64,000 bases of DNA from a bacterium (lineage in GTDB: Bacteria > J088 > JAWLBW01). A program made the translations under genes and the position numbers. The stretch lies in the NCBI GenBank assembly GCA_041690355.1, contig JAWLHK010000018.1, positions 1 to 64,000 of the forward strand, given 5' to 3'. The stretch's first letter is position 1. Each line of letters starts with the position of its first letter. The notes beneath the pieces were generated by a model that was not told the DNA's origin, did not search any database, and saw nothing but the letters and a program-made list of their open reading frames with translations. Shown in pieces: positions 43,479 through 62,353 of this stretch.

Positions 43479-43602
43479 CGAGGAGTCTCCATAGCAGAGC
43501 GGTCGGGATACTATAGCGGACCGAAGCCCCGGGGTAAAGTTCCGCCCTTCGCTCACAGGTATGCTGACACCGGCTGTCCACCGGGTGACGTACGATGTCT
43601 GC

Positions 43603-44061
43603 ATGCGCCCGTACTGGAAAACCCTTGCCGGCCGATTCCGGGGGACGGAGGTAATCGTTGCCGGCCTGTTCACGGCCATGGCCTGGGAAATCTTCCGCAC
43701 TGAGGGGCCGGCGCGGGGGCTGATTTTCGCAGCCTTCGGAATGGGGATCATGCTGCTGCGCCTGAGTGCTCCCGAGGTAGAAGCACGGACCAACCGGTGG
43801 GGCAATTATCCGGTCCTTCCCGGCCGCAAGCCAGGCGGCGGGACTCAATCCGGTTCCCGCGCCCGCCGTCAGGTCGCCATCTTTGCGCTCGCCATCCTGC
43901 CGGCCGTGCTCACCGTGCATGCGCTGCTGAACGGCGCCCCGGGCGTCGGAGACGCGGTGGGCGCCGTCGTCGCGTGCCTGCTGCTGCTCTTCGGCGGCGC
44001 GGGCGCTTTTCTGCTGCTGACGTGGATTCTCGAGCGCTTGCTGGGGGGTGGGAAAGGGTAG
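43603..44061 (+). CDS. Small 4-TM membrane protein, copy 1
   Basis: 152 aa; frame and length conserved with copy 2. Confidence 0.7.
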   Translation: MRPYWKTLAGRFRGTEVIVAGLFTAMAWEIFRTEGPARGLIFAAFGMGIMLLRLSAPEVEARTNRWGNYPVLPGRKPGGGTQSGSRARRQVAIFALAILPAVLTVHALLNGAPGVGDAVGAVVACLLLLFGGAGAFLLLTWILERLLGGGKG

Positions 44062-44086
44062 CGGCCGGACTCGCGTTCAGCCGATA

Positions 44087-44117
44087 CCCGTCTTCTTCGG
44101 GGCCGGCACGGAAGTGG
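44087..44117 (-). repeat. Short degenerate rluA 5' fragment
   Basis: cccgtcttcttcggggccggcacggaagtgg vs cccatcttcttcgggtccggcacggaattgg at 38520-38550. Confidence 0.7.
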
Positions 44118-44186
44118 TGACGAGACCTCTCCGGAGCATTGCTTATTCTCCATACCCCTATCTCAAAATATTTGAGAAAATAGTTC

Positions 44187-46493
44187 ATGCAAACGAGGTT
44201 GGATGTGAAGCGCGCCGCCTATTTTACGCTTTGTCTTGTCGTTGCTTGCACGCCCGCAAGCGAGCTCCCGATGGTTCCCGATGTATCGCAATGGTCGCAG
44301 CCGACAGAGGAAGCTGTCTCCTGGCCAAACGAAGCGGGCGCGCCAATCCCCGTACCCAACGCGTTGCGCGACCTTGATTGGCTTGCCGACCCGAGCGCCT
44401 TCGGTCACAGCGGGCCTCCAACGACTCGTGAGAAAGCGGGAAGCTTCGGCATCGGCAACGGTCGAGTGTTCGGTCTGATAGGCCTCGACGAGCCGCGCAA
44501 TACTTTAACGAACGCGATTGGCCCCGGCTACCAGATAAACGCCGGCTTCTTCGGCGACAGCTCCATCCACCTGCTTCAGGCGGGTACGGAGGCGCCGATC
44601 GAACACGAACAAGCGCAGCGGCCCCGCCGAACCGCGATTGTCAGAACGCTCGTCGCCTCCGGCGATCTTTCGGTCGAGACCACAGACGTGGCTCCCCCCG
44701 GTCACGACGTGATTATGCGATTTATCACGGTTCGGAACGCCGGTTTTATGCCCGTCGATGAATTGGCGCTGAAGATCGCTCTATCGCGGGGAAAAGAGGA
44801 GCCGGCCGCTTACAGTGTCGATGCGCTTCTTCAAGAACGCGGCCGCCACAAACTGCGTATCGAGTGTCCGAATACCGGGGCAACGGCCTACCCGTCAACG
44901 ATGACGTTTCCCGTCGGAACCCTCGGTCCGGACGAAGAAAAAAGCTTCGTATGTTGGTACCTCTTCGGCGGGGCGGCCGTTCCCACGGACTCGCCGGTTG
45001 ACTTGCTGTCTTCGTCACGAAAGCATACCGGCCGGATGCTCGACGAAGCCGTCAAACTCGAGACACCCGACCCCAAAGTCATTGATCTATACGAAGGGAT
45101 GCTCGTAACACTCGACGTGCAAACCGCCGAAAACGGCCTCGTTAGCCCGATGAACCGGTACACGTCGGGGTGGCTGCGTGACGCAGAAGGGCCAATTCGG
45201 CTGCTGCTTGCAGCCGGCCTGATTGAGCGCGCGCGTACAATTCTCGACGTGACCTACCGCTCGCTCGTCGTCTTGCATGGTATCGTGAATTCCTTTCCGC
45301 TCGATGTCGATATCTCGGGGTTTGAGGAACCTGTGGATCCCAAAACCTTTTGGGCCACCGCCGAAATGATGGGGAAATACGAAGCCGCCGAAGCGCCAAG
45401 CTACGCGACACTGCTGCATGACTTATGGATCCGTTATTCCGGCAACGAATCCATCCTGGATGCTCCGCGGATGGCCTTTTTGGAGGCGACGCTCCTTAGA
45501 CAAGAGGTGAGCGACGAAGGGCTCTTGCCCTTCAGTGGCGACGAAACCTTTCGATTCCCTTTTTTCTCCGGTAGAGGCAAGCTTCCCGAGATGGAGGGAT
45601 ACTCGGCGAACTCGTCATTTTTATTGGCGGCCGCCGCCGACCGGCTCACCGAACGCGGCGGAAGCCCCGAAGTCGCGGTCCTCGGCAAACGAGTTAGAAA
45701 AGCCGCCGAAGAGGTGTACTGGATCGCGGATGACGGATACTACGCTGCCACCGCGAGTTACGCCCACGCAAATCCTACGCCCGAGCCCTACGAAGATGTC
45801 GCGATGCAACCGCTCTGGACGGGATATGCGAAACCAAGCGAACCGAGTCAACAGCGCAACGTTAAAACCGCGCTGGATAGGCTGCTCACCGATGACACAC
45901 TCTTACACACACCGGGAACACTGACCTTCACCGGCATGGTTCCGGGTTTCCTTCTGTACAATCTCTCGCTTTTGAATCACCCCTTTGTTCATGACGCCTT
46001 TCACGCACTTGACGCTGTGGCAACCCCCTCCGGTCATTTCGAAGAAGGCCACATGCCCGATACTTCCGTGCACAGCCTGATTCACGCGCCCAACGGTCTC
46101 GGTGGTGATGCCTATGCCAGATACAGGCCTTGGGAAGGCGGCATCGTAGTGGCGGCGATGATCCACTATTTGACCGGATATCAACCTCGGGCCACATCCG
46201 CCCAGATGGATCTGGCGCCGAATCTTCCCCCTGGTTGGCACGAGACGGCCGTCCGCCAAATACGCTTTGGTAATGACTCGTTCGATTTGCAGGCCCAACG
46301 CTGGCAAGAGGGGCGAGTGGTCACAATCAGCCGAAGCGCAAACGATGGGCGAACGTGGAGGGTGCGTCTTGATCTGCGAGGTGACAAACGGTTTTCGGGC
46401 GTTTGGGTCGACGGTAATTATGTGGGCACGAGTGAAGCGGTCATGTTGCATCTCAAACCAGGCGCAAACCTGACTGTCGTAGGCGCCTACTGA
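44187..46493 (+). CDS. Lipoprotein, probable six-hairpin glycosidase-like fold
   Basis: VVAC lipobox; YTSGWLRDA (WxRD) motif; beta-rich termini. Confidence 0.55.
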   Translation: MQTRLDVKRAAYFTLCLVVACTPASELPMVPDVSQWSQPTEEAVSWPNEAGAPIPVPNALRDLDWLADPSAFGHSGPPTTREKAGSFGIGNGRVFGLIGLDEPRNTLTNAIGPGYQINAGFFGDSSIHLLQAGTEAPIEHEQAQRPRRTAIVRTLVASGDLSVETTDVAPPGHDVIMRFITVRNAGFMPVDELALKIALSRGKEEPAAYSVDALLQERGRHKLRIECPNTGATAYPSTMTFPVGTLGPDEEKSFVCWYLFGGAAVPTDSPVDLLSSSRKHTGRMLDEAVKLETPDPKVIDLYEGMLVTLDVQTAENGLVSPMNRYTSGWLRDAEGPIRLLLAAGLIERARTILDVTYRSLVVLHGIVNSFPLDVDISGFEEPVDPKTFWATAEMMGKYEAAEAPSYATLLHDLWIRYSGNESILDAPRMAFLEATLLRQEVSDEGLLPFSGDETFRFPFFSGRGKLPEMEGYSANSSFLLAAAADRLTERGGSPEVAVLGKRVRKAAEEVYWIADDGYYAATASYAHANPTPEPYEDVAMQPLWTGYAKPSEPSQQRNVKTALDRLLTDDTLLHTPGTLTFTGMVPGFLLYNLSLLNHPFVHDAFHALDAVATPSGHFEEGHMPDTSVHSLIHAPNGLGGDAYARYRPWEGGIVVAAMIHYLTGYQPRATSAQMDLAPNLPPGWHETAVRQIRFGNDSFDLQAQRWQEGRVVTISRSANDGRTWRVRLDLRGDKRFSGVWVDGNYVGTSEAVMLHLKPGANLTVVGAY

Positions 46494-46671
46494 GATCGCG
46501 CATTGCAAACCCTTTGTCGTTGATGGGGGCAGAAGCGTTGACTACCTGACGGACGAGCCCCAGAGACGCGCCGTGAATACCAATCATGTCAAAAAGTGCA
46601 CCGCTATGCGCGTCCACTTGGAGGCGGTGTCAGGCGTAGAGGCCACTGGTTACAGTACGTGGGAGAATCTG

Positions 46672-46931
46672 CGGATCTCGGCAGATTGGCTGCTCCAGGG
46701 CCCCCGGGGTGACGAGCGCAACGCGGCTGGCTAAAAGGAGCATCATTCTCGACAGGGCGGGAAGCGCGTGGTCCTTGGCTAATTCCGTTGCCGTTTCATC
46801 GTATTCAGCCATATCTCGGGAGTCGCAATAGGTTGAACACGACCGGCTATGCACGCTTCGACGATTCGACGCGGCAGTCCGCCAAAAAACAGGCCAGAAA
46901 GTAAGACGTTTGTGTCGAGTACGATCTTCAC
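46672..46931 (-). pseudogene. PIN-family toxin pseudogene (frameshifted and truncated)
   Basis: GTG 46931 gives MKIVLDTNVLLSGLFFGGLPRRIV; homology continues in another frame near 46812 (AEYDE...ICRDP) and then stops. Confidence 0.8.
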
Positions 46932-47194
46932 TTTCGGCCGCGAACCCGGCGAATGGCTTTCGATATATCCTTTGGGCGAAGACCGGACGCGCGCGCCTGT
47001 TCTTGGAGTGCTTCGCTTAGAACCTTGAATTCACGAGCGGACGGGAGAGAAATCACTTTCAGCATGAGTGAATCACCCTCTGAAACCACCACAAATTCGA
47101 CGCCCTCTTCCAGGCCCATTTTGTCCCGTATGGATTGCGGGATGACGACCTGGCCGCGGGAGGACATTCTGGTTGTTGCGAGTGATGGGGGCAT
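46928..47194 (-). CDS. AbrB/MazE/SpoVT family antitoxin
   Basis: TTRMSSRGQVVIPQSIRDKMGL; GTGA overlap with the PIN start. Confidence 0.92.
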   Translation of the reverse strand: MPPSLATTRMSSRGQVVIPQSIRDKMGLEEGVEFVVVSEGDSLMLKVISLPSAREFKVLSEALQEQARASGLRPKDISKAIRRVRGRK

Positions 47195-47302
47195 CGGTGG
47201 CTCCTAATCTTACTAGTAAGATTGAACCACGAAATCATCCGTTGTAGGTGCTTCCAAGCAACGGCCATTGAACCGGCCCGCGGTCCGCTCGAGCGGCTTG
47301 TT

Positions 47303-47470
47303 CCAGCCTGAAAGCCGAGCACCGCACGCCGCCGTTCTTCACGAGCGCGCGCGCATCGGCCGCGGCCAGTTTCTGCCGGCGGGCGAGCCCGTCGGCAAGC
47401 GGGTGACCGTCTTCTTCGGGCCCGGCGCGGAATTGGAAGCGGTCGGCCATGGGGGCAGTGTAGCAGAGGG
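47303..47470 (-). pseudogene. Duplicated 5' end (~43 codons) and promoter of the RluA-family gene
   Basis: MADRFQFRAGPEEDGHPLADGLARRQKLAAADARALVKNGGVR, near-identical to the start of the gene at 38564; TGCTACACT box retained. Confidence 0.88.
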
Positions 47471-47524
47471 GGTCGTCTGACCAGTGGACACGTGCTGGTC
47501 ACGAGCCGCCCTATTAATATCCGC

Positions 47525-47983
47525 ATGCGCCCGTACTGGAAAATCCTTGCCGGCCGGTTCCGGGGCACCGAGGTGATTGTCGCCGGCCTGTTCACGGCAA
47601 TGGCCTGGGAAATCTACCGCACCGAGGGGCCGGCGCGGGGGCTGATTTTCGCTGCCTACGGGACGGGGATCATGCTGCTGCGCCTGAGTGCTCCCGAGGG
47701 AGAAGCTCGGACCAACCGGTGGGGCAATTATCCGGTCCTTCCCGGCCGCAGGCCCGGGGGTGGGAGTCAACCCGGTTCCCGCGCCCGCCTTCAGGTCGCC
47801 GTTTTTGCGCTCGCCATCCTGCCGGCCGTGCTCACCGTGCATGCGCTGCTGAACGGCGCGCTGGGACTCGGCAACGCGGTGGGCGCCGTCGTCGCGTGCC
47901 TGCTGCTGCTCTTCGGCGGCGCGGGCGCTCTCCTGCTGTTGACGTGGAGCTTCGAGCGGTTTCTGGGAAGTGGGGAAGGGTAG
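47525..47983 (+). CDS. Small 4-TM membrane protein, copy 2
   Basis: Highly similar to 43603-44061. Confidence 0.7.
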   Translation: MRPYWKILAGRFRGTEVIVAGLFTAMAWEIYRTEGPARGLIFAAYGTGIMLLRLSAPEGEARTNRWGNYPVLPGRRPGGGSQPGSRARLQVAVFALAILPAVLTVHALLNGALGLGNAVGAVVACLLLLFGGAGALLLLTWSFERFLGSGEG

Positions 47984-48303
47984 CGGCCGGCATCAGCCCC
48001 GCTGCTCACATCCCACGAAGAAAACGTCCAGTGTTTCGCGCGCATCGGGCCATGTACGTTAGGGCGGCGACGATTTGCGCCGGACTACGTGTACGCTGCC
48101 ATCCGCCTGAACTACAGCGGCATCTTTGTCTGTTGGTGGGGCTCGGTGCGAGGTAGTTTGACGGGCTGCTTCACCGGCGGCTGCCCGGCAGTTTTTCAGA
48201 GCCTACAGATCGCTGAAGAAGCCGTTACCCGCAACTCCCGCGAGCTCCAGGCTGCCGTGTCCAAGCTTCAATGTTCCGTTCGTCCCTGCTACGATAATGC
48301 GCA

Positions 48304-49014
48304 ATGGCACAGAAAAAAGGCGCCGAACCACAACAAGACAGGGCCATAGAAGCCAAGCAGAAGATCCTCACTGCAGCGCTCGAAGAGTTTGCCGAGCACG
48401 GGTTTGACCGGGCTACGACGCGTTCAATCGCAAAACGCTCTGGCGAAAACGCGGCCATGATTCGCTATTACTTCGGTGACAAAGAGAACCTCTGGAAGGC
48501 TGCAATGGAGACGCTCTTTACGCGATTTCTGGGGCGCATTCAGAGCGCTTACGTCGAGGTCATGACGCTCCCGACAGAGCGGGTCGCGCGGGAAATGATG
48601 CATGCCTTCATTCGGGCGACGGCCGATTACCCTGAGACCATTCAGATTCTCGTAACCGAAAACATTCGAAAGACCGAGCGGCTCAGGTGGCTCGTCGAAA
48701 CGTACATACGCCCCGGTTTCGAGATGTTTCAGTCTGTATATCAGTCCGTATCGCCGCTATTTCGTGTTCCCGCCTATCCTGACGTGAATTTATTCTACGC
48801 AATGCTCGGCGCCGCAAGCCTCGTCTTTGCATCGAAGGAAGAGGTCAGAATCCTGTCGGGAGAGAACAACCTTACAGGCGAACAGCCTGTGGCTCAACAC
48901 GCCGATTTGATGTTGCAGTTATTCTTCAGCGACTCTGTTCGGGCATCCTGCCTGCCCCCAAAATCAAAACCGATGAAGAGTCGCTCCCCAAATCAACACG
49001 GGAAAAAACACTAG
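48304..49014 (+). CDS. TetR/AcrR family regulator
   Basis: ILTAALEEFAEHGFDRATTRSIA...IRYYFGDKENLW. Confidence 0.95.
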   Translation: MAQKKGAEPQQDRAIEAKQKILTAALEEFAEHGFDRATTRSIAKRSGENAAMIRYYFGDKENLWKAAMETLFTRFLGRIQSAYVEVMTLPTERVAREMMHAFIRATADYPETIQILVTENIRKTERLRWLVETYIRPGFEMFQSVYQSVSPLFRVPAYPDVNLFYAMLGAASLVFASKEEVRILSGENNLTGEQPVAQHADLMLQLFFSDSVRASCLPPKSKPMKSRSPNQHGKKH

Positions 49015-49157
49015 CATTCAAGTTCAAACTGACAACCGTTGAGGAGTGGGGCCGTAGCGCCTTGCCAGAAAGTTATCCATATGATTAACTATTGGGGCAG
49101 ATCGATAAGGACATTTCGTTGGAATATGGGGCGGCATCCGCCTCCATGGAGACTCCC

Positions 49158-50834
49158 ATGGCACGACTACAGATCAAGAAGAACGCGATAACGGCCAAAC
49201 GAGTATTCTGGCTGGGGGTATTTCTGACGACCCTTGGGTTACAGGCATGCAGCAGCAATGTGCCGGTCGATGATTCGAGATCGAATGCGAACCCTCCCCC
49301 CACAAACCCTCCCCCCACGACGGAAGAAGAACAGAGCGACCCAACAGGAACCGAGCCAGGCTTCGGAACGGAGCTTACGGTAACACCCGCCGATATCCTG
49401 TTGCCTCGTGGTGGTGAGCTCACACTCGCCTACGAAATTTTGCCCGAAGACGACTACTCGGGAAAAGTTCAAGCGACGGTAAGTGGACTACCAGCGGGTG
49501 TCGACTACACGGCCGATGACCTGTCGGGCACTCAAAAGTCCGGCATGCTCACCTTGACGGCGACCCATGCCGCGGTGGCCGGCGAATACACGCCGAAACT
49601 CGTTCTGTCGGACGGGAACAATACATTGGAAGCCGCGATCTCCCTACGGATTCCAGCATCCGGCTCTTACGTGAAAACGTTTGGCAACGCGGGTACCGCC
49701 GATGTGACGCTTCCCCTCAGCGGTATCCGACCCGTCGATTTTGAGGTGACCAGCGATCAGAGCATCATCATTCTTTCCGCCGTACCCAATGCGTCGGGCG
49801 CGATCTACCTGCAGAAGCTCGGCCAGAATGGAATGGTCGACCCGTCGTTCGGTGAAGCCGGGCTGATGAACGATGCCAATGCCGCGGAATATACATACAG
49901 CATCAAATCGCTGAAGGTCGACTCCCTCAACAGGATCTGGGTCTTCTACCGCAGCAACTCCAACTTTGTCGTGTCTCGCTATAACGCTTCAGGCTCTGTA
50001 GATACAAGCTTTGGAACGGATGGGACCACGACGGTTAACCTTGGCCTGAATGCCTATTTTTGGGACGCCGAGTTCGCTCAGAATGGGAAGCTCCTTCTCG
50101 CCGGCAGGGTCACTTGGGAAGGCATGATCCTTCGCGTGAACGACGACGGCTCGCTTGACGACTCATTCGGTACGAACGGAAGAGTTCTCGTTGGCTACGA
50201 TACCAATGCGAAGTGCGACGGTATCGCAATCGACAGCAACGGTCGACTCACTGCGTCGTGCAATACGACCAAGCGCATTGTGAACCTCATACGACTGCAG
50301 AACGACGGCAATATCGATACGTCGTTCGGTTACGCAGGTTACGTGCCCCTTACCGAAGATACAAACATCGATTCGTCGCTCGAAATTGACGGCGACGATC
50401 GCATCTATTACAGCACCGTGTACGAAGGGAAAAAAGCGCTGACGATTCAACGCTTCATGCCCAACGGGATCACGGATGCGACCTATGCGAACGCAGGAAC
50501 ATTTACGGCCGACACCACGGGCAGTGATTACGTGTACCCCTACTGGCACACCCATCTGGCACTCGATGGCGAGAACAACGCGTACGTCGTGTCGGGAAGT
50601 CCAGACAGCGCGGACTGGAACTTCGAACGTGGCTGGCTGTTCAAAGCCCTTGCTGACGGCACAAGCGATATGCAATTTGGCACGTCCGGAAAGGTGTGGA
50701 TCGATAGCTTCGACCCCAGCCTTTACTGGGTCGAGATCCTGCAGTTAGCCATTGCCGGCGATAAACTCCTCGTCCTCGAAGCACAGTTAGACAGCCAGCC
50801 TTACGGCGGCACGATACACGCTTTCTGGAAGTAA
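49158..50834 (+). CDS. Lipoprotein with delta-60-type beta-propeller repeats
   Basis: LQAC lipobox; repeated G.(V/L)D.SFG..G motifs. Confidence 0.8.
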   Translation: MARLQIKKNAITAKRVFWLGVFLTTLGLQACSSNVPVDDSRSNANPPPTNPPPTTEEEQSDPTGTEPGFGTELTVTPADILLPRGGELTLAYEILPEDDYSGKVQATVSGLPAGVDYTADDLSGTQKSGMLTLTATHAAVAGEYTPKLVLSDGNNTLEAAISLRIPASGSYVKTFGNAGTADVTLPLSGIRPVDFEVTSDQSIIILSAVPNASGAIYLQKLGQNGMVDPSFGEAGLMNDANAAEYTYSIKSLKVDSLNRIWVFYRSNSNFVVSRYNASGSVDTSFGTDGTTTVNLGLNAYFWDAEFAQNGKLLLAGRVTWEGMILRVNDDGSLDDSFGTNGRVLVGYDTNAKCDGIAIDSNGRLTASCNTTKRIVNLIRLQNDGNIDTSFGYAGYVPLTEDTNIDSSLEIDGDDRIYYSTVYEGKKALTIQRFMPNGITDATYANAGTFTADTTGSDYVYPYWHTHLALDGENNAYVVSGSPDSADWNFERGWLFKALADGTSDMQFGTSGKVWIDSFDPSLYWVEILQLAIAGDKLLVLEAQLDSQPYGGTIHAFWK

Positions 50835-50883
50835 TTCTCGCGAAGGCAAGAAAAACGATAAACCCAAAACAAGGCGAGGATAG

Positions 50884-51525
50884 ATGTCGACCTGCCAACC
50901 ATTCGCGATCATGCGACTCACCCATGAGGCCATCCGCAGAGGACTCGAAGCTCTGGAGCAGACGGCCGAAAACAAAGCCCCGGTCGAAGACCTGGAAAGT
51001 GCCTTTCAGTCGGTCTGGAACTGCATCCAGCTTCATGCCGCCCAGGAAGACAAGGTCTTCTATGGCGCACTGGAAGAACGGCACCCGGGCTTAACCGCAC
51101 CTTTCACGCAAGAGCACGATGCCGAGGCCAAGCAGATTGAGTTCATCGAGAAGCGCCTGAAGTCGTCTCAGCACGATGCCGAGGTCGCGCCCGAGCTCTA
51201 CGCGGACATTCTCTCCTTCATTCAAACCCACCGCGAACATTTGAAGCACGAAGAAGAAATTCTCATGGAGCTTCTCCCCAGGACCTTTACCTATCCCGAA
51301 TCGGTCGAGGTCGTACGCAAGATCCTCGCCTACGACATGCCGGTCTACCGCGAAATCGCCCCTTGGATTCTGGCTCGTCTCCAGGGCGGCCAGCGTGAAA
51401 CCTATCTTGGCATGGTGCAAGGTTGTTGCGCCAAAGAAGACTTGCCAGATGTACTGGAAAGCCTGAAGCCAGTCATGAGCAAGACTGAAGTGGAAGAATT
51501 ACAAGCGGTCGGCCGAATCGGGTAG
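50884..51525 (+). CDS. Hemerythrin (HHE) domain protein
   Basis: HEAIRR, LHAAQEDKVFY, EH and HREHLKHEEE ligand pattern. Confidence 0.88.
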   Translation: MSTCQPFAIMRLTHEAIRRGLEALEQTAENKAPVEDLESAFQSVWNCIQLHAAQEDKVFYGALEERHPGLTAPFTQEHDAEAKQIEFIEKRLKSSQHDAEVAPELYADILSFIQTHREHLKHEEEILMELLPRTFTYPESVEVVRKILAYDMPVYREIAPWILARLQGGQRETYLGMVQGCCAKEDLPDVLESLKPVMSKTEVEELQAVGRIG

Positions 51526-51548
51526 CCGGCTCAGAAAGAGGAATTTTC

Positions 51549-52943
51549 ATGTCAGAAACAACCGGCCACATCCTAACAAGCCTGGGCGAAACCGCCGCCC
51601 GGAATCTCGCCGACGTCACCAAGACACGCGCCAACATGGGCATCATCAGCCCGCGTTGGCTGTTGCGGATGTTGCCTTGGGTCGACGTTGAAGCCGGGAT
51701 GTACCGCGTCAACCGCGTACGCGTGGTCGGCGAGGAGTTCAGTCGTCTTGACCCTACGCTATTGCGTGAAACCCGTAAACCCTCAGCGAATCACCTGAAG
51801 TCGATTCCCCTCTTCCGTCACTTTTTGGATTCTGATCTCGAGGAACTTGCCAATGGGTTTCGCACCCGAGAGGTAGCACAATACGACGATATCCTCACCG
51901 AAGGCGAAGCCGGCGACGAGATGTGTCTCATCGTCGCCGGGAAAGTTGAAGTCTACCGCCAAAGCCCATCGGGAGAGCGGGCCGTACTCAACGTTCTCGG
52001 TTCAGGTGCGCATTTTGGTGAAGTCGCACTGCTTCGTGATGAACCACGCAATGCAAGCGTTCGAGCCATCACCCCGGCTACGTTACTTTCTATCGATAAA
52101 AAGTCATTTCAGAAGCTCCTGAAAAGAAACCCCCAACTGAAAGCCGCTGTCGAAGAGACCGCGGCCTACAGAACCGGGAAAGAAGAAGTCAGTGTCAATC
52201 TCACGACCGTCAATGCTGAAACGGAAGTCTCGTCGACGTTCGTTGACTATGAAGAAAATCCGAGACTGATCACGCTTTCTTCGATCACGACGACCCTGCG
52301 TGTGCAAACCCGGGTCATGGACCTCTATAAACAGCCCTACGACCAACTCCAGGAGCAGGCTCGCCTGGTCATCGAAGCGATCAAGGAGCGCCAGGAGTGG
52401 GAGTTGATCAACAATCCCGGTTTCGGCCTCTTCGCAAACGTCAGCGCTGCCATGCGAACACCGACCCGCTCGGGTCCGCCTACGCCCGAGGGCATGGATG
52501 AGCTGCTTTCGAAGGTCTGGAAAGAGCCGGCTTTCTTTCTGGCCCACCCGAGAGCCATCGCCGCATTCGGACGCGAGTGTACCGCCCGTGGCGTACCACC
52601 ACCTACGGTGACGTTGTTTGGGTCACCCTTTCTGACCTGGCGCGGAGTGCCATTGGTACCTTCAGACAAGATGCCCATTGACTTCAGCAGCGGTGTGCCC
52701 AAAACCAGGATCCTTCTCATGCGCGTGGGTGAAGAGAGGCAGGGCGTGGTCGCGCTTCGCCAGGCGAACGTCGGCGACGAGCGAATGCCCAGTATCGCGA
52801 TCCGCTTCAACGGTGTCGATCAAAACGCCGTCGCTAACTATCTTGTAAGCGCCTACTTTGCCCTGGCCACCTTGTCAGATGATGCGGTAGGGGTCTTGGA
52901 TGAGGTGGAGATCGGTCATTACTACGATAATGCAGGCAACTGA
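51549..52943 (+). CDS. Family 2B encapsulin shell protein (SrpI-like with inserted cNMP-binding domain)
   Basis: SLGETAARNLA..TK, RWLLRMLPWVDVEAGMYRVNR, insert with FGEVALL..PRNASV, TFVDYEENPR, LAHPRAIAAFGRECT.RGVPP, WRGVPLVPSDK. Confidence 0.92.
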   Translation: MSETTGHILTSLGETAARNLADVTKTRANMGIISPRWLLRMLPWVDVEAGMYRVNRVRVVGEEFSRLDPTLLRETRKPSANHLKSIPLFRHFLDSDLEELANGFRTREVAQYDDILTEGEAGDEMCLIVAGKVEVYRQSPSGERAVLNVLGSGAHFGEVALLRDEPRNASVRAITPATLLSIDKKSFQKLLKRNPQLKAAVEETAAYRTGKEEVSVNLTTVNAETEVSSTFVDYEENPRLITLSSITTTLRVQTRVMDLYKQPYDQLQEQARLVIEAIKERQEWELINNPGFGLFANVSAAMRTPTRSGPPTPEGMDELLSKVWKEPAFFLAHPRAIAAFGRECTARGVPPPTVTLFGSPFLTWRGVPLVPSDKMPIDFSSGVPKTRILLMRVGEERQGVVALRQANVGDERMPSIAIRFNGVDQNAVANYLVSAYFALATLSDDAVGVLDEVEIGHYYDNAGN

Positions 52944-54535
52944 TGCTCGAAAGGGATGAAGGCAAAGAAGGCGTAGAGCAAGAGGAGGTTCAGGCCCTCG
53001 CCGAATCTCTGCGTCTCCATCTTGGGAGTCTTCAACCATCCGCCGACCACGGAACCGCGGTGCCGGAGGCGAGTACGACCTCCGGTCTGCAGAGGGTACG
53101 GTTTCCAGAGACGCTTCTACGCAGTCAAGCCTCCGCAAAGGACGAGTACTACTGGCTTCGAACGCCTTCCCTCGAGAGGATCGCCCCCATCCAGACGCCG
53201 GAATACTTTCCCCACCGCAATGAGCCCTCACCAGAGATACTGCCACCGGTAGAACACGCGAGAGGCAGGCAGCCTGACCGACAGCGAGCCGACGGGCCAC
53301 CCTTAACGGGATCCCGCGGCCTGCGCGCTAGAACGGGAGCATCGGTGCGAGAAGACTTTCCGGCCTTGAACCAGAAGGTCAACGGTCATCCACTTGTATG
53401 GCTCGACAACGGCGCGACGACACAAAAGCCGAACGAAGTCATCGAGGCCGTGAACGCCTTTTATCGGTTCGACAATTCCAATGTTCATCGCGGCGCGCAT
53501 ACCCTTGCCGCCCGTGCAACCGATGCGTACGAGAATGCCCGCGAGCGGGTTCGCGCTTTTCTCGGCGCGGCAAGTTCAGAAGAGGTCGTTTTCGTAAGGG
53601 GCACGACCGAGGCCATCAATCTCGTCGCACAGTCATGGGGAGCGGCCAATGTCTCAGCAGGAGATGAGATTCTTGTCTCCCAGCTCGAGCACCATTCGAA
53701 CATTGTTCCGTGGTTCGAACTTTGCCGCCGTGTTGGAGCCAGGCTCCGCGTCATTCCCGTCGATGACGACGGGAACATTGATCTCGAATCCTATGGGCGA
53801 ATGCTTAATTCCCGGACCAGGCTCGTCGCCCTTACTCAGGTCGCCAACGCCATCGGCACGGTGCTACCCATCGGGCTGATGGCCCAGATCGCCAAAACGC
53901 ACGGCGCAACCGTTCTGGTCGACGGAGCGCAGTCGATTGCGCATTTACCGGTGAATGTTGCCTGTCTCGATATCGACTTCTTCGCGTTCTCAGGTCACAA
54001 AATCTACGGACCCACCGGCATTGGCGTGCTGTGGGCGCGAAAGGGCATTCTCGAGTGCATGCCCCCATGGCAGGGCGGCGGAAGCATGATTCGCGACGTC
54101 ACCTTCGAGCGAATCGAGTACGCATCCCTGCCCGCACGCTTTGAAGCGGGAACGCCAAACCTGGCTGGTGCCGTCGGTCTCGGTAGTGCCCTCGCGTATG
54201 TCGTGCAACTGGGGCGAGTGGCAATTGCGGCGCATGAACACGAACTCCTGAACCGCCTTCTCGAGCGGCTACGAAACCTCCCGCATGTGACAACGATAGG
54301 CGCACCATTCACGCAAGCTGGTGCTGTATCGTTCGTTGTCGAGGGTCACGACCCGCAAAAGGTCGGGAAGTACTTGAACAGCCGTGGCATAGCCGTACGC
54401 GCGGGGCATCACTGCGCCCAGCCCACCCTGCGGCGCTTCGGCTACGAAGCCTCCGTACGTGCCTCCGTTGGAGTTTACAACGACGAAGAGGATATCGACA
54501 TGCTTCTGTCGGCACTGAGATCGCTGAAGCCATAA
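52943..54535 (+). CDS. SufS-type cysteine desulfurase with ~130-aa N-terminal extension (encapsulin cargo)
   Basis: WLDNGATTQKP, NVHRGAH, FSGHK and RAGHHCAQP motifs; TGATG coupling to the encapsulin. Confidence 0.93.
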   Translation: MLERDEGKEGVEQEEVQALAESLRLHLGSLQPSADHGTAVPEASTTSGLQRVRFPETLLRSQASAKDEYYWLRTPSLERIAPIQTPEYFPHRNEPSPEILPPVEHARGRQPDRQRADGPPLTGSRGLRARTGASVREDFPALNQKVNGHPLVWLDNGATTQKPNEVIEAVNAFYRFDNSNVHRGAHTLAARATDAYENARERVRAFLGAASSEEVVFVRGTTEAINLVAQSWGAANVSAGDEILVSQLEHHSNIVPWFELCRRVGARLRVIPVDDDGNIDLESYGRMLNSRTRLVALTQVANAIGTVLPIGLMAQIAKTHGATVLVDGAQSIAHLPVNVACLDIDFFAFSGHKIYGPTGIGVLWARKGILECMPPWQGGGSMIRDVTFERIEYASLPARFEAGTPNLAGAVGLGSALAYVVQLGRVAIAAHEHELLNRLLERLRNLPHVTTIGAPFTQAGAVSFVVEGHDPQKVGKYLNSRGIAVRAGHHCAQPTLRRFGYEASVRASVGVYNDEEDIDMLLSALRSLKP

Positions 54536-54543
54536 GAGCCATT

Positions 54544-57500
54544 ATGAAGAGACATTTGATTCTGGTTGCCTCAGCGCTTGTGCACTATGCGTGTTCGGCA
54601 GAGCTGGAACACCAAGGCCCCTTCGATCCCATGACCGACGCGGCGAAGCAGGCGCCCGCCGAGGTCTCGGGCAAAATTACGCTTGAAGGAGAGTCAGACT
54701 ACGCGGGGGTGAACATCCTCTTTTCGGGGCCAACCGAAAAGTCAACCGTGACCCTGGCCGACGGTTCTTTCTCCACGAACGGTTTAGTTCCCGGACGCTA
54801 TCGAATTACCTACTCTGCACGCGGATTTCAGGAGATCAGCCAGGTTCTGGAACTCTCACTCGGTGAGCGTCTCGAGCTGCCGACCGGCGGATTGGCGCTA
54901 CGTACGGCCACCGTTCGCGGTGAAATCAAATCAGACGACGAGAGCCTGCTTGACGTTACAGGCAGCCAAATCAGAATCCGGCGCATCTACGGTCCGCGAG
55001 CAAGCAGCCAAGCCGGCCCCGCGCTCCGTAGGTCAGCGGAGGTTTTGGACGACGACGAAGACTCCTTCACTGACTTTACGACCGTCGACTCCGATGGGAC
55101 ATACGAATACGACGGCGTTAAGGCCGGCACCTACACGATGATCGTCAAACAAGAGGGTGCCGTTTCGACGGAAACCGAGTTCAACGTTTCCGGTGAGACC
55201 GAAGATGTCACCGTCAAACCGCAGGTCATCAAGCCGCTCTCGGGCGTTTTTTCAATCCGCGGGACCCTGCGCGACGGCTCCGTCTCGCTCGCCTATACGG
55301 TGACCCGTGACGTGACGGTCCTTGCAACGGCTTACAATGCATCGTTTGTGCAGCTTGGCGAAGATAGAGGCAACGGTTGCATCTACGGTATCGATCAGGA
55401 ACTCGAGGCGGCCATGGACATTCGACTATCGGCCGGCGATGGACTGAAGACGGCATGCATGCGACTGAAAGACAACGCGGGAGCATCGAGCCCCGACATC
55501 CGTTCGACGATCTTTCTCGACGCCACTCCGCCGACTGTGCCGTTTCTGGAACTGAATGGCGGCCGCGAGTACACAACTGACGACATCGTAACGGCCGAGG
55601 TCTTTGCCAGTGATACCGGCGCGGGGGTGCATCGCATCCACTACCGCTTCGGAGCGGCCACGACGTCAACGATCAACTACGTTCCGTCGTTCATTCACGG
55701 CTTGACGCAGGAAGGCGAGCAAGACTTATGGTTACAGGTCGAGGACCGGGCAGGAAACCTCTCTTTGCCGTATGTGATTCCCCTGAGGTACGACGGCACG
55801 CCACCGATCTCCCCTGCCGTCGAAATTCTCGGTAGCGAGGGCGTCGCGCTGCGAACGGCCAGAGAAATCGTCACCCTGCAACTCAGCTACCCCGATGACG
55901 CAGCAGAGATGCGGCTTTCGAACCTGGCCGACCTGTCGGGCGTGCCATGGCAAGCGGTTACCCCTTCTTTACCCTGGCAGCTCTATTCAGGCGACGGCGT
56001 CAAAACCGTATACGTTCAGGTACGGGATGAGGCCGGGAACGCGAGCGCCATATCGGCGGCGACGATTACCCTCGATCAATCGCCCCCCGAGACGCCGGCG
56101 TTACAGGTCTTCGACATCGACGGAGACGGTTTTGCCCTCTCATCCACCCGCGTCGAGCTCCGCTGGAGTCAGGCGATCGAAGGTGATCTCGCCTCCTATG
56201 AGCTTCAGGTTTTCGTCGAAGGCTTGTCGACCTCTTTCGTCGCCGAGGCGACACCCGGTCCCTCACAGTTCGAATACGCGAGCGATGTGTCGATGACGAC
56301 CGGCTACACGCACAACTACCGCGTTCGGGCTGCCGACGATCTCGGGAATACGTCAGCCTGGTCCAACATTGCCATCGCAAAGCCATTCGATCCGGTGGGT
56401 GTCGTGTGCAGTGTGGAGGCCGGTCCGGACCAATTTTCGCTGGGATGGTCACCGGGGGTTGGCACCTACACGATTGAATCCACGCTTTCAAAGCGAAACG
56501 CATTCGGCACAGCTACGTTTACGGATCTCACGGCGAATCAGGTTTTTGCCGGATACGCCGCCCCGTTTGCCCTTCCGGAGCAGGCGATGGATTACGAGCT
56601 GATCCTTCGGCAGTCGAACCAAGACAACAGCCTCAGCTACCGGAGCACGTTCGATGCACCCGGCCCCTACCGAAAGCGGCTCGGTGCCGGTGGCTTGTAC
56701 GTCGCCATTGAAATGGATTTGGCGGGGGCGATCCATATCGGCCATTGGGATCTGTACAAAAACGACCTCCTGTACACGACGAACAAAGGCGGCGAATGGG
56801 TTACCGAGTCCGTCGAGTCGGCCGGCAGAGTTGGTGAATATGCCGACATGACCCTTGATGCACATGGGTACGCCCATTTCAGCTACTACGACGGCTATCC
56901 GAATAACGATTTAAAGTACGCCACAAATGCCTCCGGAAGCTGGCAGGTTTATACGGTGGATGCGACGGGCACGACCGGCTGGCAGACCTCGATCGCCGTC
57001 GACAGCCAAGGCGCCGCGCATGTCAGCTACCACTATCAAACCGAGAACGACCTCCGCTACGCGACGAATGAATCGGGGAGCTGGCAGAGCTATACGTTGG
57101 ATACGGCTGGCAATACAGGTCAATATTCATCCATCGTCGTCGATTCGGATGACCGAATTCATATTGGCTATCTCAACGTGGACCAGAACCGGCTCTATTA
57201 CGCGACCAACAAGAGCGGCGGCTGGACCCGCGAATTAATCGGTCCCGCTTCGATCTATACAAATATGGCGGTAGATGGAGAAGGGGGGCTGCACATCGCC
57301 TATGAGTACGACAGCCAGATTTGGTACGCCGAGAACACGACTGGAACGTGGACGAGACAAGCCGTAGACCCGAGCGTGAGCGTGGGTCGAGACCCTGGAA
57401 TTGCCCTGGACCTGCAGGGCAGGGTCTTCATCACCTATAGAGATTACGGCAATGATAGCCTCAAGCTTGCGACCAACCTTTCCGGCGGCTGGGAAAACGC

Positions 57501-58647
57501 AACGCTCGACGCTTCGGCTCGAAGCGGTCAGCATTCGTCAATTGCGCTTGATCGAGCCGGTCGGCTTCATATCGCCTACAGTGAAGATGACGGCTACCTT
57601 CGTTACCTCAACACCGCGCCCGGCGTGTACGAAAAGACCATCGTACACGCCACGGGTGACGCGGGAGAAATGTCGTCGTACGCACGGGCGGCGACAGGGG
57701 TAGAGTTCATTGCCTACTACCAGGCGTCGGGCCAGAACCTTCGTTTTGCCTCGAACGTTACCGGGGTATGGGAACACCGCCTGCTGGATGGAGACGGCGA
57801 GGTAGGCTGGTTTCCGTCCTTGGCCGTCGACGCCGACGGTCTTCCTCACGTCGCCTACTACAAAATGAGCCAAGCCCTCAAGTACGCGACGGCAACCTCT
57901 AGCGGCGTTTGGAGCATTGAAGTTGTCGACGATAGCGCTGATGCAGGCCGTGGAGCCTCGCTTGCATTGGACTCGACCGGGGCCGCGCATATCAGTTATC
58001 ACGATTTTGATGCGAAAGATTTGAAATATGCCACGAACGCATCCGGCAACTGGGTGATTACGACCCTCGAGTCCTCTGGAAACGTCGGCTACTTCACGTC
58101 TATTGCCGTCGACAACCAAGATAACGTGTATATTGCCTACCAGCACCCTGGTTACAAGGAACTCCGGTACGCCACCAATCGGGGAGGATCGTGGTCGTTC
58201 ACAACCATCGATAGCAACGGGGATGCCGGCTGGGCGCCCCAGCTCGTGCTGGACGAGAACGACACGCCACATATTTCCTACCACGTGTGGCCGGGCGAAA
58301 CTCGCTACGCAACGCTGCGAGGAGGAGGCTGGCAGATTGAAAGTCTAAATGACCTTGTGGGGAACACGGCGATTTACTCGTCCATCGCTGTTTCCGGCGG
58401 ACGCATCGGCGTGGCCGTCGAAAGCTTGGACCTCGGCGGACTCGTCTTCGTGGAAAAAGGTACGGGCCGCTGGACTGCCCATGTCATGGACATTGAAAAA
58501 GGCGGCGCCCCATCCCTTGAATTTGTGAATTTCGACGCAGCCTACCTCTCCTACTACGATAGGAATGCCAGAGACCTGAAATATTTATCCTTTCACTACC
58601 AATGCAGCGAAGCAAAGCAGGTTGAGCGAATCGGCCCGTTCGACTGA
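54544..58647 (+). CDS. Giant surface lipoprotein: carboxypeptidase-regulatory-like, Ig/Fn3-like and beta-propeller repeats
   Basis: Leader ending HYAC; VRDEAGN/VEDRAGN Ig-like motifs; many L(K/R)YATN.SG.W repeats. Confidence 0.78.
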   Translation: MKRHLILVASALVHYACSAELEHQGPFDPMTDAAKQAPAEVSGKITLEGESDYAGVNILFSGPTEKSTVTLADGSFSTNGLVPGRYRITYSARGFQEISQVLELSLGERLELPTGGLALRTATVRGEIKSDDESLLDVTGSQIRIRRIYGPRASSQAGPALRRSAEVLDDDEDSFTDFTTVDSDGTYEYDGVKAGTYTMIVKQEGAVSTETEFNVSGETEDVTVKPQVIKPLSGVFSIRGTLRDGSVSLAYTVTRDVTVLATAYNASFVQLGEDRGNGCIYGIDQELEAAMDIRLSAGDGLKTACMRLKDNAGASSPDIRSTIFLDATPPTVPFLELNGGREYTTDDIVTAEVFASDTGAGVHRIHYRFGAATTSTINYVPSFIHGLTQEGEQDLWLQVEDRAGNLSLPYVIPLRYDGTPPISPAVEILGSEGVALRTAREIVTLQLSYPDDAAEMRLSNLADLSGVPWQAVTPSLPWQLYSGDGVKTVYVQVRDEAGNASAISAATITLDQSPPETPALQVFDIDGDGFALSSTRVELRWSQAIEGDLASYELQVFVEGLSTSFVAEATPGPSQFEYASDVSMTTGYTHNYRVRAADDLGNTSAWSNIAIAKPFDPVGVVCSVEAGPDQFSLGWSPGVGTYTIESTLSKRNAFGTATFTDLTANQVFAGYAAPFALPEQAMDYELILRQSNQDNSLSYRSTFDAPGPYRKRLGAGGLYVAIEMDLAGAIHIGHWDLYKNDLLYTTNKGGEWVTESVESAGRVGEYADMTLDAHGYAHFSYYDGYPNNDLKYATNASGSWQVYTVDATGTTGWQTSIAVDSQGAAHVSYHYQTENDLRYATNESGSWQSYTLDTAGNTGQYSSIVVDSDDRIHIGYLNVDQNRLYYATNKSGGWTRELIGPASIYTNMAVDGEGGLHIAYEYDSQIWYAENTTGTWTRQAVDPSVSVGRDPGIALDLQGRVFITYRDYGNDSLKLATNLSGGWENATLDASARSGQHSSIALDRAGRLHIAYSEDDGYLRYLNTAPGVYEKTIVHATGDAGEMSSYARAATGVEFIAYYQASGQNLRFASNVTGVWEHRLLDGDGEVGWFPSLAVDADGLPHVAYYKMSQALKYATATSSGVWSIEVVDDSADAGRGASLALDSTGAAHISYHDFDAKDLKYATNASGNWVITTLESSGNVGYFTSIAVDNQDNVYIAYQHPGYKELRYATNRGGSWSFTTIDSNGDAGWAPQLVLDENDTPHISYHVWPGETRYATLRGGGWQIESLNDLVGNTAIYSSIAVSGGRIGVAVESLDLGGLVFVEKGTGRWTAHVMDIEKGGAPSLEFVNFDAAYLSYYDRNARDLKYLSFHYQCSEAKQVERIGPFD

Positions 58648-58717
58648 TTGACGCATTGGCAGGTGGAATTGCGGTCGGCAAGAAGGTCGACGGCATGAAG
58701 ACCGTAGGTCAAGTATA

Positions 58718-59022
58718 CTGCGCCTGAGTTCTCCCGAGGTAGAAGCACGGACCAACCGGTGGGGAAATTATCCGGTCCTTCCCGGCCGCAAGCCCGGAGG
58801 CGGGAGTCAGCCCGGTTCCCGCGCCCGCCGGCAGGTCGCCATTTTCGCGCTCGCCATCCTGCCGGCCGTGCTCACCGTGCATGCGCTGCTGAACGGCGCC
58901 CCGGACGTCGGAGACGCGGTGGCGCCGTCGTCGCGTGCCTGCTCCTGCTCTTCGGCGGCGCGGGCGCTCTCCTGCTGCTGACGTGGCTTCTCGAGCGCTT
59001 GCTGGGGGGGGGAGGGGGGTAG
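58718..59022 (+). pseudogene. Membrane protein copy 3, 5'-truncated with a 1-nt deletion near 58920
   Basis: Aligns to the 3' two-thirds of copies 1 and 2; gcggtggcgcc vs gcggtgggcgcc. Confidence 0.85.
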
Positions 59023-60607: not shown

Positions 60608-60744
60608 GGAGTGCCGACCTACTCAGGGAGGAAGTTCCGGTCTGCCCAAGTTCCAGGTCGCCGGCGGCGGCCCCGCGGTATCCCAAATTTACCTCATCGC
60701 TAAGCAGGCCGCAGTCCGCATGAAGTAGGCTTGTTAGAGTGAGA

Positions 60745-62343: not shown

Positions 62344-62353
62344 CCGGACTTCC

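Follow-up and report, generated by a model that had tools for sequence, protein, structure and literature searches.

A probable insertion hotspot between rluD and rpsU where three diverged copies of an orphan gene separate unrelated blocks of foreign DNA

When the window (the whole 64,000-nt stretch of DNA that was analyzed) is searched for repeats, a single gene, here called X, is found in three direct copies that lie in register at 43603-44061, 47525-47983 and 58718-59022, with unrelated cargo between them, as the initial annotation had described for this region (43603-59022). The order of the array is X_A and cargo 1, then a sequence Z, a truncated rluD (rluD'), X_B and cargo 2, then a truncated third copy (X_C') and cargo 3. 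We tentatively suggest, giving the idea a little less than an even chance, that this is an insertion hotspot at which DNA from diverged relatives has been added to the resident DNA, rather than swapped for it, by homology-anchored recombination; we infer who the donors were, in what order the events occurred and how the DNA was joined. The general phenomenon is already known (hotspots, tandem accretion and displacement arrays), and the present arrangement is known from one genome only, a metagenome-type assembly of 4.64 Mb in 42 contigs with N gaps and an estimated contamination of 1.77%.

Comparison with a relative supports the earlier claim of an insertion hotspot, in that the site behaves as one. 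In the one insert-less relative that informs on this, a genome of the same family, the flanking core genes rluD and rpsU are neighbors (~500-750 bp apart, with nothing comparable between them), whereas here they are ~27 kb apart and the intervening blocks are foreign in composition. The rluD homologue of that genome shares 57% amino-acid identity over 205 aa (tblastx), and its rpsU, 94% identical over 50 aa, is followed by HrpB in the same order as here; in a second genome (G002) HrpB alone is syntenic. The comparison collection holds two genomes from the family, two from the class and five from the phylum, and the closest of them belongs to a different genus (HrpB 54% identity). The conserved left anchor of the locus is an intact rluD (37680-38564, minus strand), which encodes a pseudouridine synthase of the RluA/RluD type (Pfam S4, 5e-09; PseudoU_synth_2, 8.5e-26). 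It is followed by a low-GC (0.54) block of 460 bp with an XRE-type HTH gene (38587-39009, plus strand; Pfam HTH_31/HTH_3; GC3 0.61), then by a fragment of rluD (F1, below) and two TPR lipoprotein-like genes (39115-41349 and 41349-43478, minus strand; weak TPR Pfam matches), which precede the second copy of an 11-mer described below. The composition of the TPR genes is host-like (GC3 0.81-0.83; host genes flanking the region, 0.81-0.85), and the start of the second, TPR2, at 43478 was taken from a reading of the sequence. Rfam gave no match at E<=0.01 in 36-64 kb or in the contig at 64-68 kb. A 58-nt repeat pair (36273/65494) was rejected as a pair of island borders, as it is a dispersed element found also on eight other contigs.

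X is a real, selected gene with a host-like codon composition. Copies A (repeat 43595-44068, GC3 0.80) and B (47517-47990), both on the plus strand with the coding sequences given above, are intact and encode 152 aa. Copy C (58718-59024, plus strand) is a pseudogene and had rightly been called decayed: its first 51 codons are gone, it begins at approximately codon 52, and a 1-bp deletion near 58921 breaks its frame. Repeat finding places 43756-43960, 47678-47882 and 58718-58922 in one block (92% and 95% to copy A) and 43960-44063, 47882-47985 and 58921-59024 in another, with a longer A-B pair at 43595-43894 and 47517-47816 (91%). In local alignments the identical positions number 430/474 for A-B, 289/306 for A-C and 280/302 for B-C; the copies are mutually 89-94% identical, their longest identical runs are 53-58 nt, and the X_A and X_B proteins share 88% amino-acid identity over their intact 152-codon frames. 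Self-BLAST of the region (31.5 kb) returns the X pairs at E-values of 0, 5e-132 and 2e-109, which is not chance, and a six-frame search of the entire assembly recovers these three copies only, with C in two pieces. The copies are also GC-rich and host-like (GC 0.68-0.70, GC3 0.80-0.81) and diverged by scattered substitutions, as had been noted; their private sites (12, 20 and 7, plus one three-way site) are interspersed. Homology begins 8 bp before the ATG and ends ~7 bp past the stop, and outside these limits the copies are no more similar than shuffled sequence. The best local scores for the flanks lie inside the shuffle range except where the sequences upstream of A and B are compared (score matched or exceeded in 10 of 500 shuffles), a match that pairs the TPR2 start with rluD', finds no support in the three-way alignment and was treated as chance.

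The product of X, which had been labeled a membrane protein, is predicted to be one from a hydropathy plot with three strongly hydrophobic stretches. A word-indexed search of 5.8 billion proteins gave two matches to X among 919 candidates, both of them the window's own proteins, and a HMMER profile run against 1.84 billion representatives (E<=0.001) gave three, namely its own cluster and two weak multi-stretch matches. Pattern scans for X yielded 148 matches in metagenome contigs and 38 in genome contigs, with none confirmed in either set. Among the five genomes of the phylum X was found in one, its own; Pfam and NCBIfam hold no match to it, and the ESM Atlas no homologue, the best score there (0.86) being a lead only. 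An mRNA-derived (retro-copied) X, suggested by the nearby reverse transcriptase and by the start of homology at -8, is speculation: the 3' boundary has no terminator, and we know of no precedent for a retro-copied gene of this kind.

The blocks between the X copies are foreign, as judged by composition. All 13 cargo genes measured are lower in GC3 (0.49-0.68) than the X copies, in agreement with the lower GC that had been claimed. Block 1 (44118-47302; GC3 0.57-0.65) comprises a gene for a 768-aa conserved hypothetical protein (44187-46493), a 74-aa ORF (46630-46854, minus strand) and an AbrB/MazE antitoxin (46928-47194, minus strand). Block 2 (47991-58717, plus strand; GC3 0.63-0.68) encodes a TetR protein, a delta-60 repeat protein, hemerythrin, a family-2 encapsulin with a cNMP domain, a cysteine desulfurase and a 1367-aa CarboxypepD_reg protein (Pfam, NCBIfam). 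Block 3 (59025-63205, minus strand; GC3 0.49-0.61) encodes a PLD-family nuclease (59597-60607), a UG14-type reverse transcriptase (60745-62343; PADLOC RT_UG14, 9e-197) and an Abi_C protein (62354-63205; Pfam), and at its right edge, at ~63.2 kb, GC climbs from 0.57 to 0.64. The earlier cargo assignments (glycosidase-like plus a toxin-antitoxin-type gene; encapsulin; defence) are thus upheld by Pfam, NCBIfam and PADLOC, with "glycosidase" reduced to GH65-like relatives: a GH65 C-terminal domain occurs in 4 of 64 relatives of the 768-aa protein among the matches listed. The idea that this protein could be a hidden recombinase was rejected, as it belongs to the conserved hypotheticals and that domain turns up in some of its relatives. 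The right ends of cargo blocks 1 and 2 (47195-47302 and 58648-58717) are intergenic, with no gene cut. Such ends would be somewhat unlikely for random illegitimate joins, and elements with defined ends fit them better.

The repeat unit is more than the one gene that had been described, as it also contains pieces of the 5' end of the neighboring rluD, which are found again, in direct order throughout, at 39049-39103, 44083-44117 and 47303-47450. F1 (39049-39103, plus strand) consists of the 19-nt Z followed by codons 43 to 31 of rluD (gene sense minus); it is 85.5% identical over 55 nt to 47303-47357 (E 7e-10) and differs from intact rluD at 5 of 36 positions, non-synonymous changes among them. 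F2 (44083-44117, plus strand) is a 35-nt piece of codons 16 to 5 that lies 21 nt past the X_A stop and is 88.6% identical to 38516-38550 (E 3e-05 in the region, 4.5e-05 genome-wide); our guess is that it may be filler DNA. The third unit (47303-47471, plus strand) joins Z (47303-47322) to F3 (rluD codons 43 to 1, 47322-47450) and to the 11-mer TAGCAGAGCGG (47461-47471, one mismatch), with 88% identity over 146 nt to 38437-38582. The junction between Z and rluD codon 43 is identical at F1 (39049) and at 47303. Exact copies of the 11-mer stand on the plus strand at 38575-38585, 10 nt upstream of the rluD start, where it forms the right limit of rluD-linked homology, and at 43492-43502, 13 nt upstream of where TPR2 starts, with 92 nt between it and the X_A homology block; allowing up to one mismatch, it has five matches against 1.24 expected. 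The spacers from the 11-mer to X are unalignable between units A and B (1418 of 2000 shuffles score as high or higher), and the rluD piece and X may therefore not have moved as one unit. A degenerate pattern for the rluD N-terminus had no match in metagenome contigs.

The substitutions in the truncated copies bear on when these sequences were brought together. F3 differs from intact rluD in 11 synonymous and 4 non-synonymous codons, a small sample, with 13 of 16 differences at codon position 3 (P=1e-4), dS 0.48 and dN/dS 0.09, and 8 of 12 private changes in X_C', also a small sample, fall at position 3 (P=0.019). For X_B the count is 9 of 20 (P=0.19), and X_A against X_B gives dS 0.204, dN 0.060 and dN/dS 0.30. 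Third codon positions account for most of the differences between the truncated copies and their intact counterparts, so that the former were still functional genes until a short time before being cut; F3 and X_C' thus resemble, within these small samples, the copies in displacement arrays that are functional until displaced. Purifying selection over most of their divergence means that truncation was recent relative to divergence, as is expected if diverged alleles were brought together. This lends indirect support to the suggestion that the X copies came in as already diverged alleles rather than originating on the spot, and the interspersed private sites suggest that the three X alleles represent three separate lineages, not a recent mosaic. 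The synonymous divergence of the rluD pieces (dS 0.48) and that of X (0.20) do not both fit one simple history. The repeated junction of Z with rluD codon 43 sits awkwardly with the addition of diverged DNA: if it formed once, F3 should have decayed for as long as F1, yet F3 looks fresh, with three changes at codon positions 1 and 2 against ~7 under a rough expectation of equal decay with F1. An additive origin would therefore need gene conversion, or a site-specific origin of the junction.

Under the explanation toward which we lean, the rluD-rpsU interval would be a hotspot of horizontal transfer, with X as a lineage-specific host gene inside it and variable DNA on either side. Related lineages would each have borne their own rluD and X allele followed by their own cargo, and here two or more of these versions, probably at least three, would have been joined in series with no replacement. 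Chromosomal DNA entering from a diverged relative would pair, within the conserved left flank (rluD or X), with the chromosome already there, and its other end, lacking a homologous partner, would join illegitimately at or before the resident flank copy (homology-facilitated illegitimate recombination); a circle that had picked up flank DNA would reach the same result by Campbell-type integration. The resident flank copy and its cargo would thereby be shoved downstream, each event leaving a whole or 5'-truncated flank copy ahead of older cargo, and housekeeping recombination would suffice, making a dedicated recombinase unnecessary. That the repeats are host-like and the blocks foreign (GC3 0.80-0.81 versus 0.49-0.68) counts for reading the repeats as flank copies, and the rluD pieces in the repeat fit chromosomal flank copies, a pattern that a gene-sized mobile cassette would not yield. 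A common right end (~7 nt past the X stop) combined with variable left ends (19 nt before rluD codon 43 at 47303; X codon 52 at 58718) is the signature of a displacement array, and an intact rluD indeed stands upstream of truncated rluD at 39049, 44083 and 47303 and of an X_C' cut at approximately codon 52. We also count in favor of addition that X_A and X_B are both intact, with dN/dS 0.30, and that tyrosine and serine recombinases are absent from the 84-kb contig. The presence of ComEC and DprA homologues in the genome and of pilMNOP on the same contig gives weak support, because genes of this type occur in most bacteria.

We consider it unlikely that the array grew instead by site-specific tandem accretion, in which a recombinase targeting the X 3' end, rluD codon 43 or both would have inserted elements serially, each with a target-like fragment in its attachment site; the integrases would later have been lost, and the cis-mobilizable blocks might still be movable by a recombinase encoded elsewhere. 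The three repeats do share an end point, copies A and B share TAGCGGCCGG past the stop, the repeated Z junction is what a site-specific event would give, the cargo ends are cleanly intergenic, and toxin-antitoxin genes lie at block ends. Against this, neither the three blocks nor the rest of the 84-kb contig contains a recombinase or a remnant of one: the absence of an integrase noted for the window extends to the whole contig, which has no PF00589 or PF00239 match, and Pfam scans of 113 ORF submissions across it detected no transposase or recombinase. The genome has six PF00589 matches, tyrosine recombinase genes that all lie on other contigs and speak for accretion, and one PF00239 match, also on another contig (C38). 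That integrated elements in tandem arrays decay to blocks lacking an integrase, as a review documents well (PMC5704250), also counts for accretion. Against it, block 3 is closed by neither a fourth repeat, as the genome holds no further copy of X, nor a core-like motif, the 13-nt end motif being absent from 59.1-66.3 kb at up to two mismatches. The repeats are 305-680 bp of DNA with host composition rather than short uniform att sites, and although their right ends agree (~+7 after the stop), their left ends do not (43595; 47303, or 47517 for X alone; 58718). F1, moreover, would be the most recently displaced fragment under such a model, yet it is the most decayed. On the same grounds the term "cassette" in its integron or mobile-element sense is not supported: there is no intI-type PF00589 gene on the contig, no inverted repeat of at least 40 nt in 40-64 kb, no attC-like site and no att repeat common to all boundaries including the outer right end, and the blocks are multi-gene and up to 10.7 kb long.

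Duplication in place, with an rluD'-X segment copied within the lineage by unequal or illegitimate sister-chromosome exchange, diverging in situ and later receiving foreign DNA independently downstream of each copy, seems to us quite improbable. The host composition of the copies fits this course, the Z junction common to F1 and F3 would follow from repeated unequal crossing-over of one unit, and the private changes of X_B have no clear third-position bias, as when a redundant copy is less constrained. Foreign DNA would nevertheless have had to insert three times independently within the same few nucleotides past X, flank homology is gone beyond -8 and +7 though dS is only 0.20, and truncated copies should have been neutral from the start, yet F3 and X_C' show purifying selection. 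A further idea, which we hold to be very doubtful, is that X and the rluD 5' end form the portable homology handle of a recombinase-free cassette system, in which RecA crossing-over between neighboring copies would loop out a circle of one handle and one cargo that enters a related cell and re-inserts at the same handle. If so, the encapsulin operon, the reverse-transcriptase defence and other functions would be shuffled among lineages of the phylum like integron cassettes, with no integrase, and the orphan gene X would be kept partly as the provider of the handle. The least probable explanation is an assembly artefact that chained co-occurring related strains, each with X and a different island, into one contig via identical stretches inside X: runs of 53-58 nt could act as bridges in a de Bruijn graph built with k no greater than 55, and both the three alleles of X and the two of the rluD 5' end resemble those of different lineages, but the junctions at 47302/47303 (cargo 1 to Z-rluD') and 58717/58718 (cargo 2 to X codon 52) share no repeat with anything else and are therefore present in real molecules, so that at least cargo 1 and cargo 2 are each flanked by X sequence on both sides, the estimated contamination is 1.77%, and genome-wide self-BLAST reveals no general doubling of diverged segments.

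Several known systems resemble this locus in part. Prophages 21 and e14 insert in icd of E. coli, bringing a diverged substitute for the end of the gene that they target, and the displaced, diverged fragment stays beside the insert; they carry an integrase and leave one fragment of ~165 bp, whereas here there are whole-gene copies and no integrase. Tycheposons reportedly form tRNA-linked island arrays, and Jackson et al. are said to have described C-terminal displacement in Rhs proteins in 2009. T6SS and Rhs arrays grow by sequential displacement through homology-facilitated illegitimate recombination, according to Kirchberger et al. on Vibrio cholerae T6SS effector-immunity modules (2017, PMC5361080): new modules are placed beside a conserved upstream anchor and older ones are displaced downstream, frequently preceded by a piece of the anchor, by a proposed combination of homologous anchor and illegitimate join with no dedicated recombinase. 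Those arrays exchange the toxin tips and immunity genes that belong to a single functional system, whereas the modules here are 3-11 kb long and of unrelated functions, and the anchor is an entire orphan gene for a predicted membrane protein plus the 5' end of a housekeeping gene. In tandem accretions of integrative elements and integrase-less CIMEs, such as ICESt1/ICESt3 at fda, unrelated islands likewise lie head to tail at one chromosomal site and some blocks have no integrase, but in the known cases (review PMC5704250) each boundary is marked by a short att repeat of uniform extent and there is at least a recombinase of matching specificity, unlike the long repeats with unequal left ends, the last boundary without a repeat and the recombinase-free contig seen here. 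Hotspots free of mobile elements, whose diversity comes from recombination in the core genes on either side, have also been described (Oliveira et al. 2017, PMC5635113), and they share with this locus a variable region between genes that are adjacent in a relative, foreign cargo including defence, a lack of mobility genes and flank recombination as the proposed driver. The model given there is replacement by double homologous recombination with no duplicated flank, whereas here DNA would have been added, with flank copies left as scars.

If the array did arise by such addition, it would be a natural record of gene acquisition by ordinary recombination, in which the flank fragment left by each event gives its date and orientation, in a phylum with five genomes in the reference set. 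Multi-kilobase functions such as an encapsulin operon and a reverse-transcriptase defence module could then accumulate with no mobile-element machinery, and integrase-less "islands" need not be decayed mobile elements.

We suggest that the interval between a pseudouridine synthase gene of the RluA/RluD type (rluD; 37680-38564, minus strand; S4 and PseudoU_synth_2 domains by Pfam) and rpsU (65717-65929 of the 84,332-bp contig, C18) is a lineage-specific variable region, since the two genes lie ~27 kb apart here and are divergent neighbours in one distant relative, G001 (HrpB 54% identical), ~500 bp apart between ORF ends and ~750 bp between match ends. This supports the insertion hotspot proposed in the initial annotation. 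G001 is the sole other family member in our reference set (two genomes in the family, two in the class, five in the phylum); HrpB, SurE, PCMT and AspRS follow there in the same order as here, and in a further relative synteny extends to HrpB only. The analysis is based on a single assembly, the one genome with this arrangement (4.64 Mb, 42 contigs, GC 0.65-0.66), and the collections searched contained no close relative. Housekeeping DNA fills the left 37 kb of the window (purine synthesis, RF2, LysRS, PRPP synthetase and similar genes), and GC drops to 0.49-0.60 across 44-63 kb. Tandem repeats of ~150 nt (93-97% identical) at window positions 1-548 probably explain the assembly break at the contig start. 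The region has at its left edge, immediately next to rluD, a DUF559 gene (Vsr-like endonuclease fold; 37106-37639, minus strand). Beyond the right edge, an 82-nt unit in four copies (95-96% identical; C18 66008-66193 and 67082-67267) brackets an alpha/beta-hydrolase gene between rpsU and HrpB; G001 has no hydrolase there, which makes the gene a candidate for a further insertion flanked by repeats.

The three direct copies of a 152-codon gene, X, that had been described within the region were confirmed on the plus strand: X_A (43603-44061) and X_B (47525-47983) have intact frames, and the decayed X_C' (58718-59022) begins at about codon 52 and carries a 1-bp deletion. X_A and X_B differ at 42 of 459 nucleotides (88% amino-acid identity), and over the common part nucleotide identity is 94% for X_A and X_C', 93% for X_B and X_C' and 91% for X_A and X_B. 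Because 23 of the 42 differences fall at third codon positions and dN/dS is 0.30 (dS 0.204, dN 0.060), the frame is a real coding sequence under selection, and three strongly hydrophobic stretches in a hydropathy plot are consistent with a small membrane protein. Searches of 5.8 billion proteins returned the window's own two proteins only, and those of 1.84 billion representatives (E<=1e-10) its own cluster only; no X locus was confirmed in metagenome or genome contigs, the phylum's other four genomes gave no match, and Pfam, NCBIfam families and the ESM Atlas gave no lead. The copies are host-like and the cargo lower in GC, as previously noted (GC3 0.80-0.81 for X, 0.81-0.85 for neighbouring host genes, 0.49-0.68 for all measured cargo genes). 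Together, this composition and the lack of a detectable relative anywhere searched mark X as a lineage-specific host gene rather than a fellow traveller of the cargo. Its homology limits are sharp, from 8 bp before the ATG to ~7 bp after the stop, with no flank similarity outside them above that of shuffled DNA, which fits a conserved gene lying between two stretches of variable DNA.

The repeat unit goes beyond the single gene described in the initial annotation: a genome-wide self-comparison showed that the 5' end of rluD also recurs, as three fragments in a common orientation. F3 (47303-47450) comprises a 19-nt sequence, Z, then rluD codons 43 to 1, and the 11-mer TAGCAGAGCGG comes after it; in F1 (39049-39103) this Z runs into codons 43 to 31; and F2 (44083-44117), 21 nt past the X_A stop, covers codons 16 to 5. 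The 11-mer also occurs 10 nt upstream of intact rluD and, as a second exact copy, 92 nt ahead of the X_A block (sites 38575-38585, 43492-43502 and 47461-47471), in each case 10-13 nt upstream of a minus-strand start codon (rluD, the rluD fragment and the TPR2 gene). By eye, a TGnTACACT-like extended -10 box overlaps the 11-mer at rluD, 6-7 nt ahead of the ATG, and X_B has TATTAA 6-7 nt ahead of its own, a spacing that suggests leaderless transcripts. The order is thus rluD, 11-mer, an HTH gene (GC 0.54), Z and F1, two host-like TPR genes, 11-mer, X_A, F2, cargo 1, Z and F3, 11-mer, X_B, cargo 2 (the encapsulin operon), X_C' and cargo 3, followed to the right of the window by toxin-antitoxin remnants, a CMD-family gene, an HxlR regulator and rpsU.

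The 768-aa protein beside X_A, in cargo 1, is a conserved hypothetical whose best non-self relatives, from bins labelled Myxococcota and Proteobacteria, are 50% identical; 4 of its 64 listed relatives have a GH65 C-terminal domain. Cargo 3 is a defence block (59597-63205) of a UG14-type reverse transcriptase (PADLOC 9e-197), a PLD-family nuclease and an Abi_C-domain protein. Between it and rpsU lie a 76-aa ribbon-helix-helix-like antitoxin ORF (by eye; 63809-64039, minus strand) and a HicB-like antitoxin (Pfam 7e-12; C18 64230-64442) with no obvious HicA partner.

Substitutions in the truncated copies have the pattern of working genes. Comparing F3 with the 5' end of intact rluD gives 11 synonymous and 4 non-synonymous codon differences, with 13 of 16 differences at position 3 (P=1e-4 against an even spread; dS 0.48, dN/dS 0.09), and 8 of the 12 private changes of X_C' are at position 3 (P=0.019); these tests use 12-42 sites each. 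A fragment made by duplication and left to decay would be expected to lack this bias. The changes that each X allele has to itself (12, 20 and 7) are interspersed along the gene; the three are separate lineages rather than a recent mosaic. Most simply, each piece diverged while still a functional gene, either in a genome of its own or as a full-length copy that persisted for a long time, and truncation came recently, when the pieces were united. The earlier suggestion that incoming DNA brings X gains indirect support from this bias.

The absence of an integrase from the window holds for all of C18: the genome's six tyrosine-recombinase matches and one resolvase match are on other contigs, and Pfam found no recombinase or transposase in the submitted C18 ORFs, which numbered 19 + 12 for 37-64 kb and 34 for 64-84 kb; for 1-37 kb they were the 48 with a length of 220 aa or more. 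There are no inverted repeats of at least 40 nt in 40-64 kb either, and no additional X end motif to the right of cargo 3; the idea of a cassette, in the mobile-element sense, is not supported. Beyond 64 kb the contig holds no further X copy, and nor does the rest of the assembly; no Rfam family matched in 36-64 kb or in C18 64-68 kb. A 58-nt element with a palindrome (36273-36330; C18 65494-65551 and 69854-69908) was ruled out as an island border, being a dispersed REP-like intergenic element found on eight other contigs (87-93% identity). Elsewhere in the genome, two direct copies of an 819-bp sequence (84% identity, GC 0.56; contig C26, 18441-19259 and 29913-30731) bracket a 10.6-kb low-GC stretch with two tyrosine-integrase genes, which probably represents a tandem pair of related integrative elements.

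Because units share a right end, differ at their left ends and always have foreign DNA after the right end, and no recombinase is present, we tentatively favour additive, homology-anchored acquisition, at somewhat under an even chance. Pairing between a relative's DNA and the chromosome would take place in the flank conserved on the left, and the incoming end that lacks homology would be linked by an illegitimate join to the resident copy of that flank or ahead of it. The resident copy, with its cargo, would be pushed downstream rather than replaced. A circle with captured flank DNA could integrate to give an identical product, the two routes being indistinguishable here; donors and order of events are inferred. 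The genome has ComEC, DprA and a pilMNOP cluster, genes present in most bacteria. Several features sit poorly with additive acquisition: the right ends of cargo 1 and cargo 2 are cleanly intergenic; the junction of Z with codon 43 occurs twice, yet F3 looks fresh and F1 has decayed, with changes, non-synonymous ones among them, at 5 of 36 rluD positions; units A and B have unrelated spacers between 11-mer and X; the rluD pieces give a dS of 0.48 and X one of 0.20; and F2 has no explanation other than filler DNA at a junction. These keep alive an unlikely site-specific origin, in which the inserted elements had defined ends and attachment sites resembling the target and have since lost their integrase, as in CIME accretion (PMC5704250). 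Duplication in place with later foreign insertions is less likely and rather doubtful, given the position-3 bias of the truncated pieces. An assembly chimera, formed where X contains identical runs of 53-58 nt, is also less likely, indeed improbable, as the junctions of cargo 1 with Z-rluD' and of cargo 2 with X codon 52 have no repeat in common with other sequence and must therefore be real molecules.

Serial islands separated by copies of the target's end are known at tRNA, tmRNA, fda and similar sites, so the general architecture is not new. What is unusual is that the anchor here is a protein-coding orphan gene repeated whole, that fragments of the next housekeeping gene form extra scars, that divergence among the alleles is 5-11% and their selection signatures date the truncations, and that mobility genes are all absent from the contig. 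The same kind of mechanism has been put forward to explain Rhs and T6SS effector-immunity arrays (PMC5361080). Additive acquisition at this locus would extend the recombination-driven hotspot model in the form outlined by Oliveira et al. (PMC5635113).
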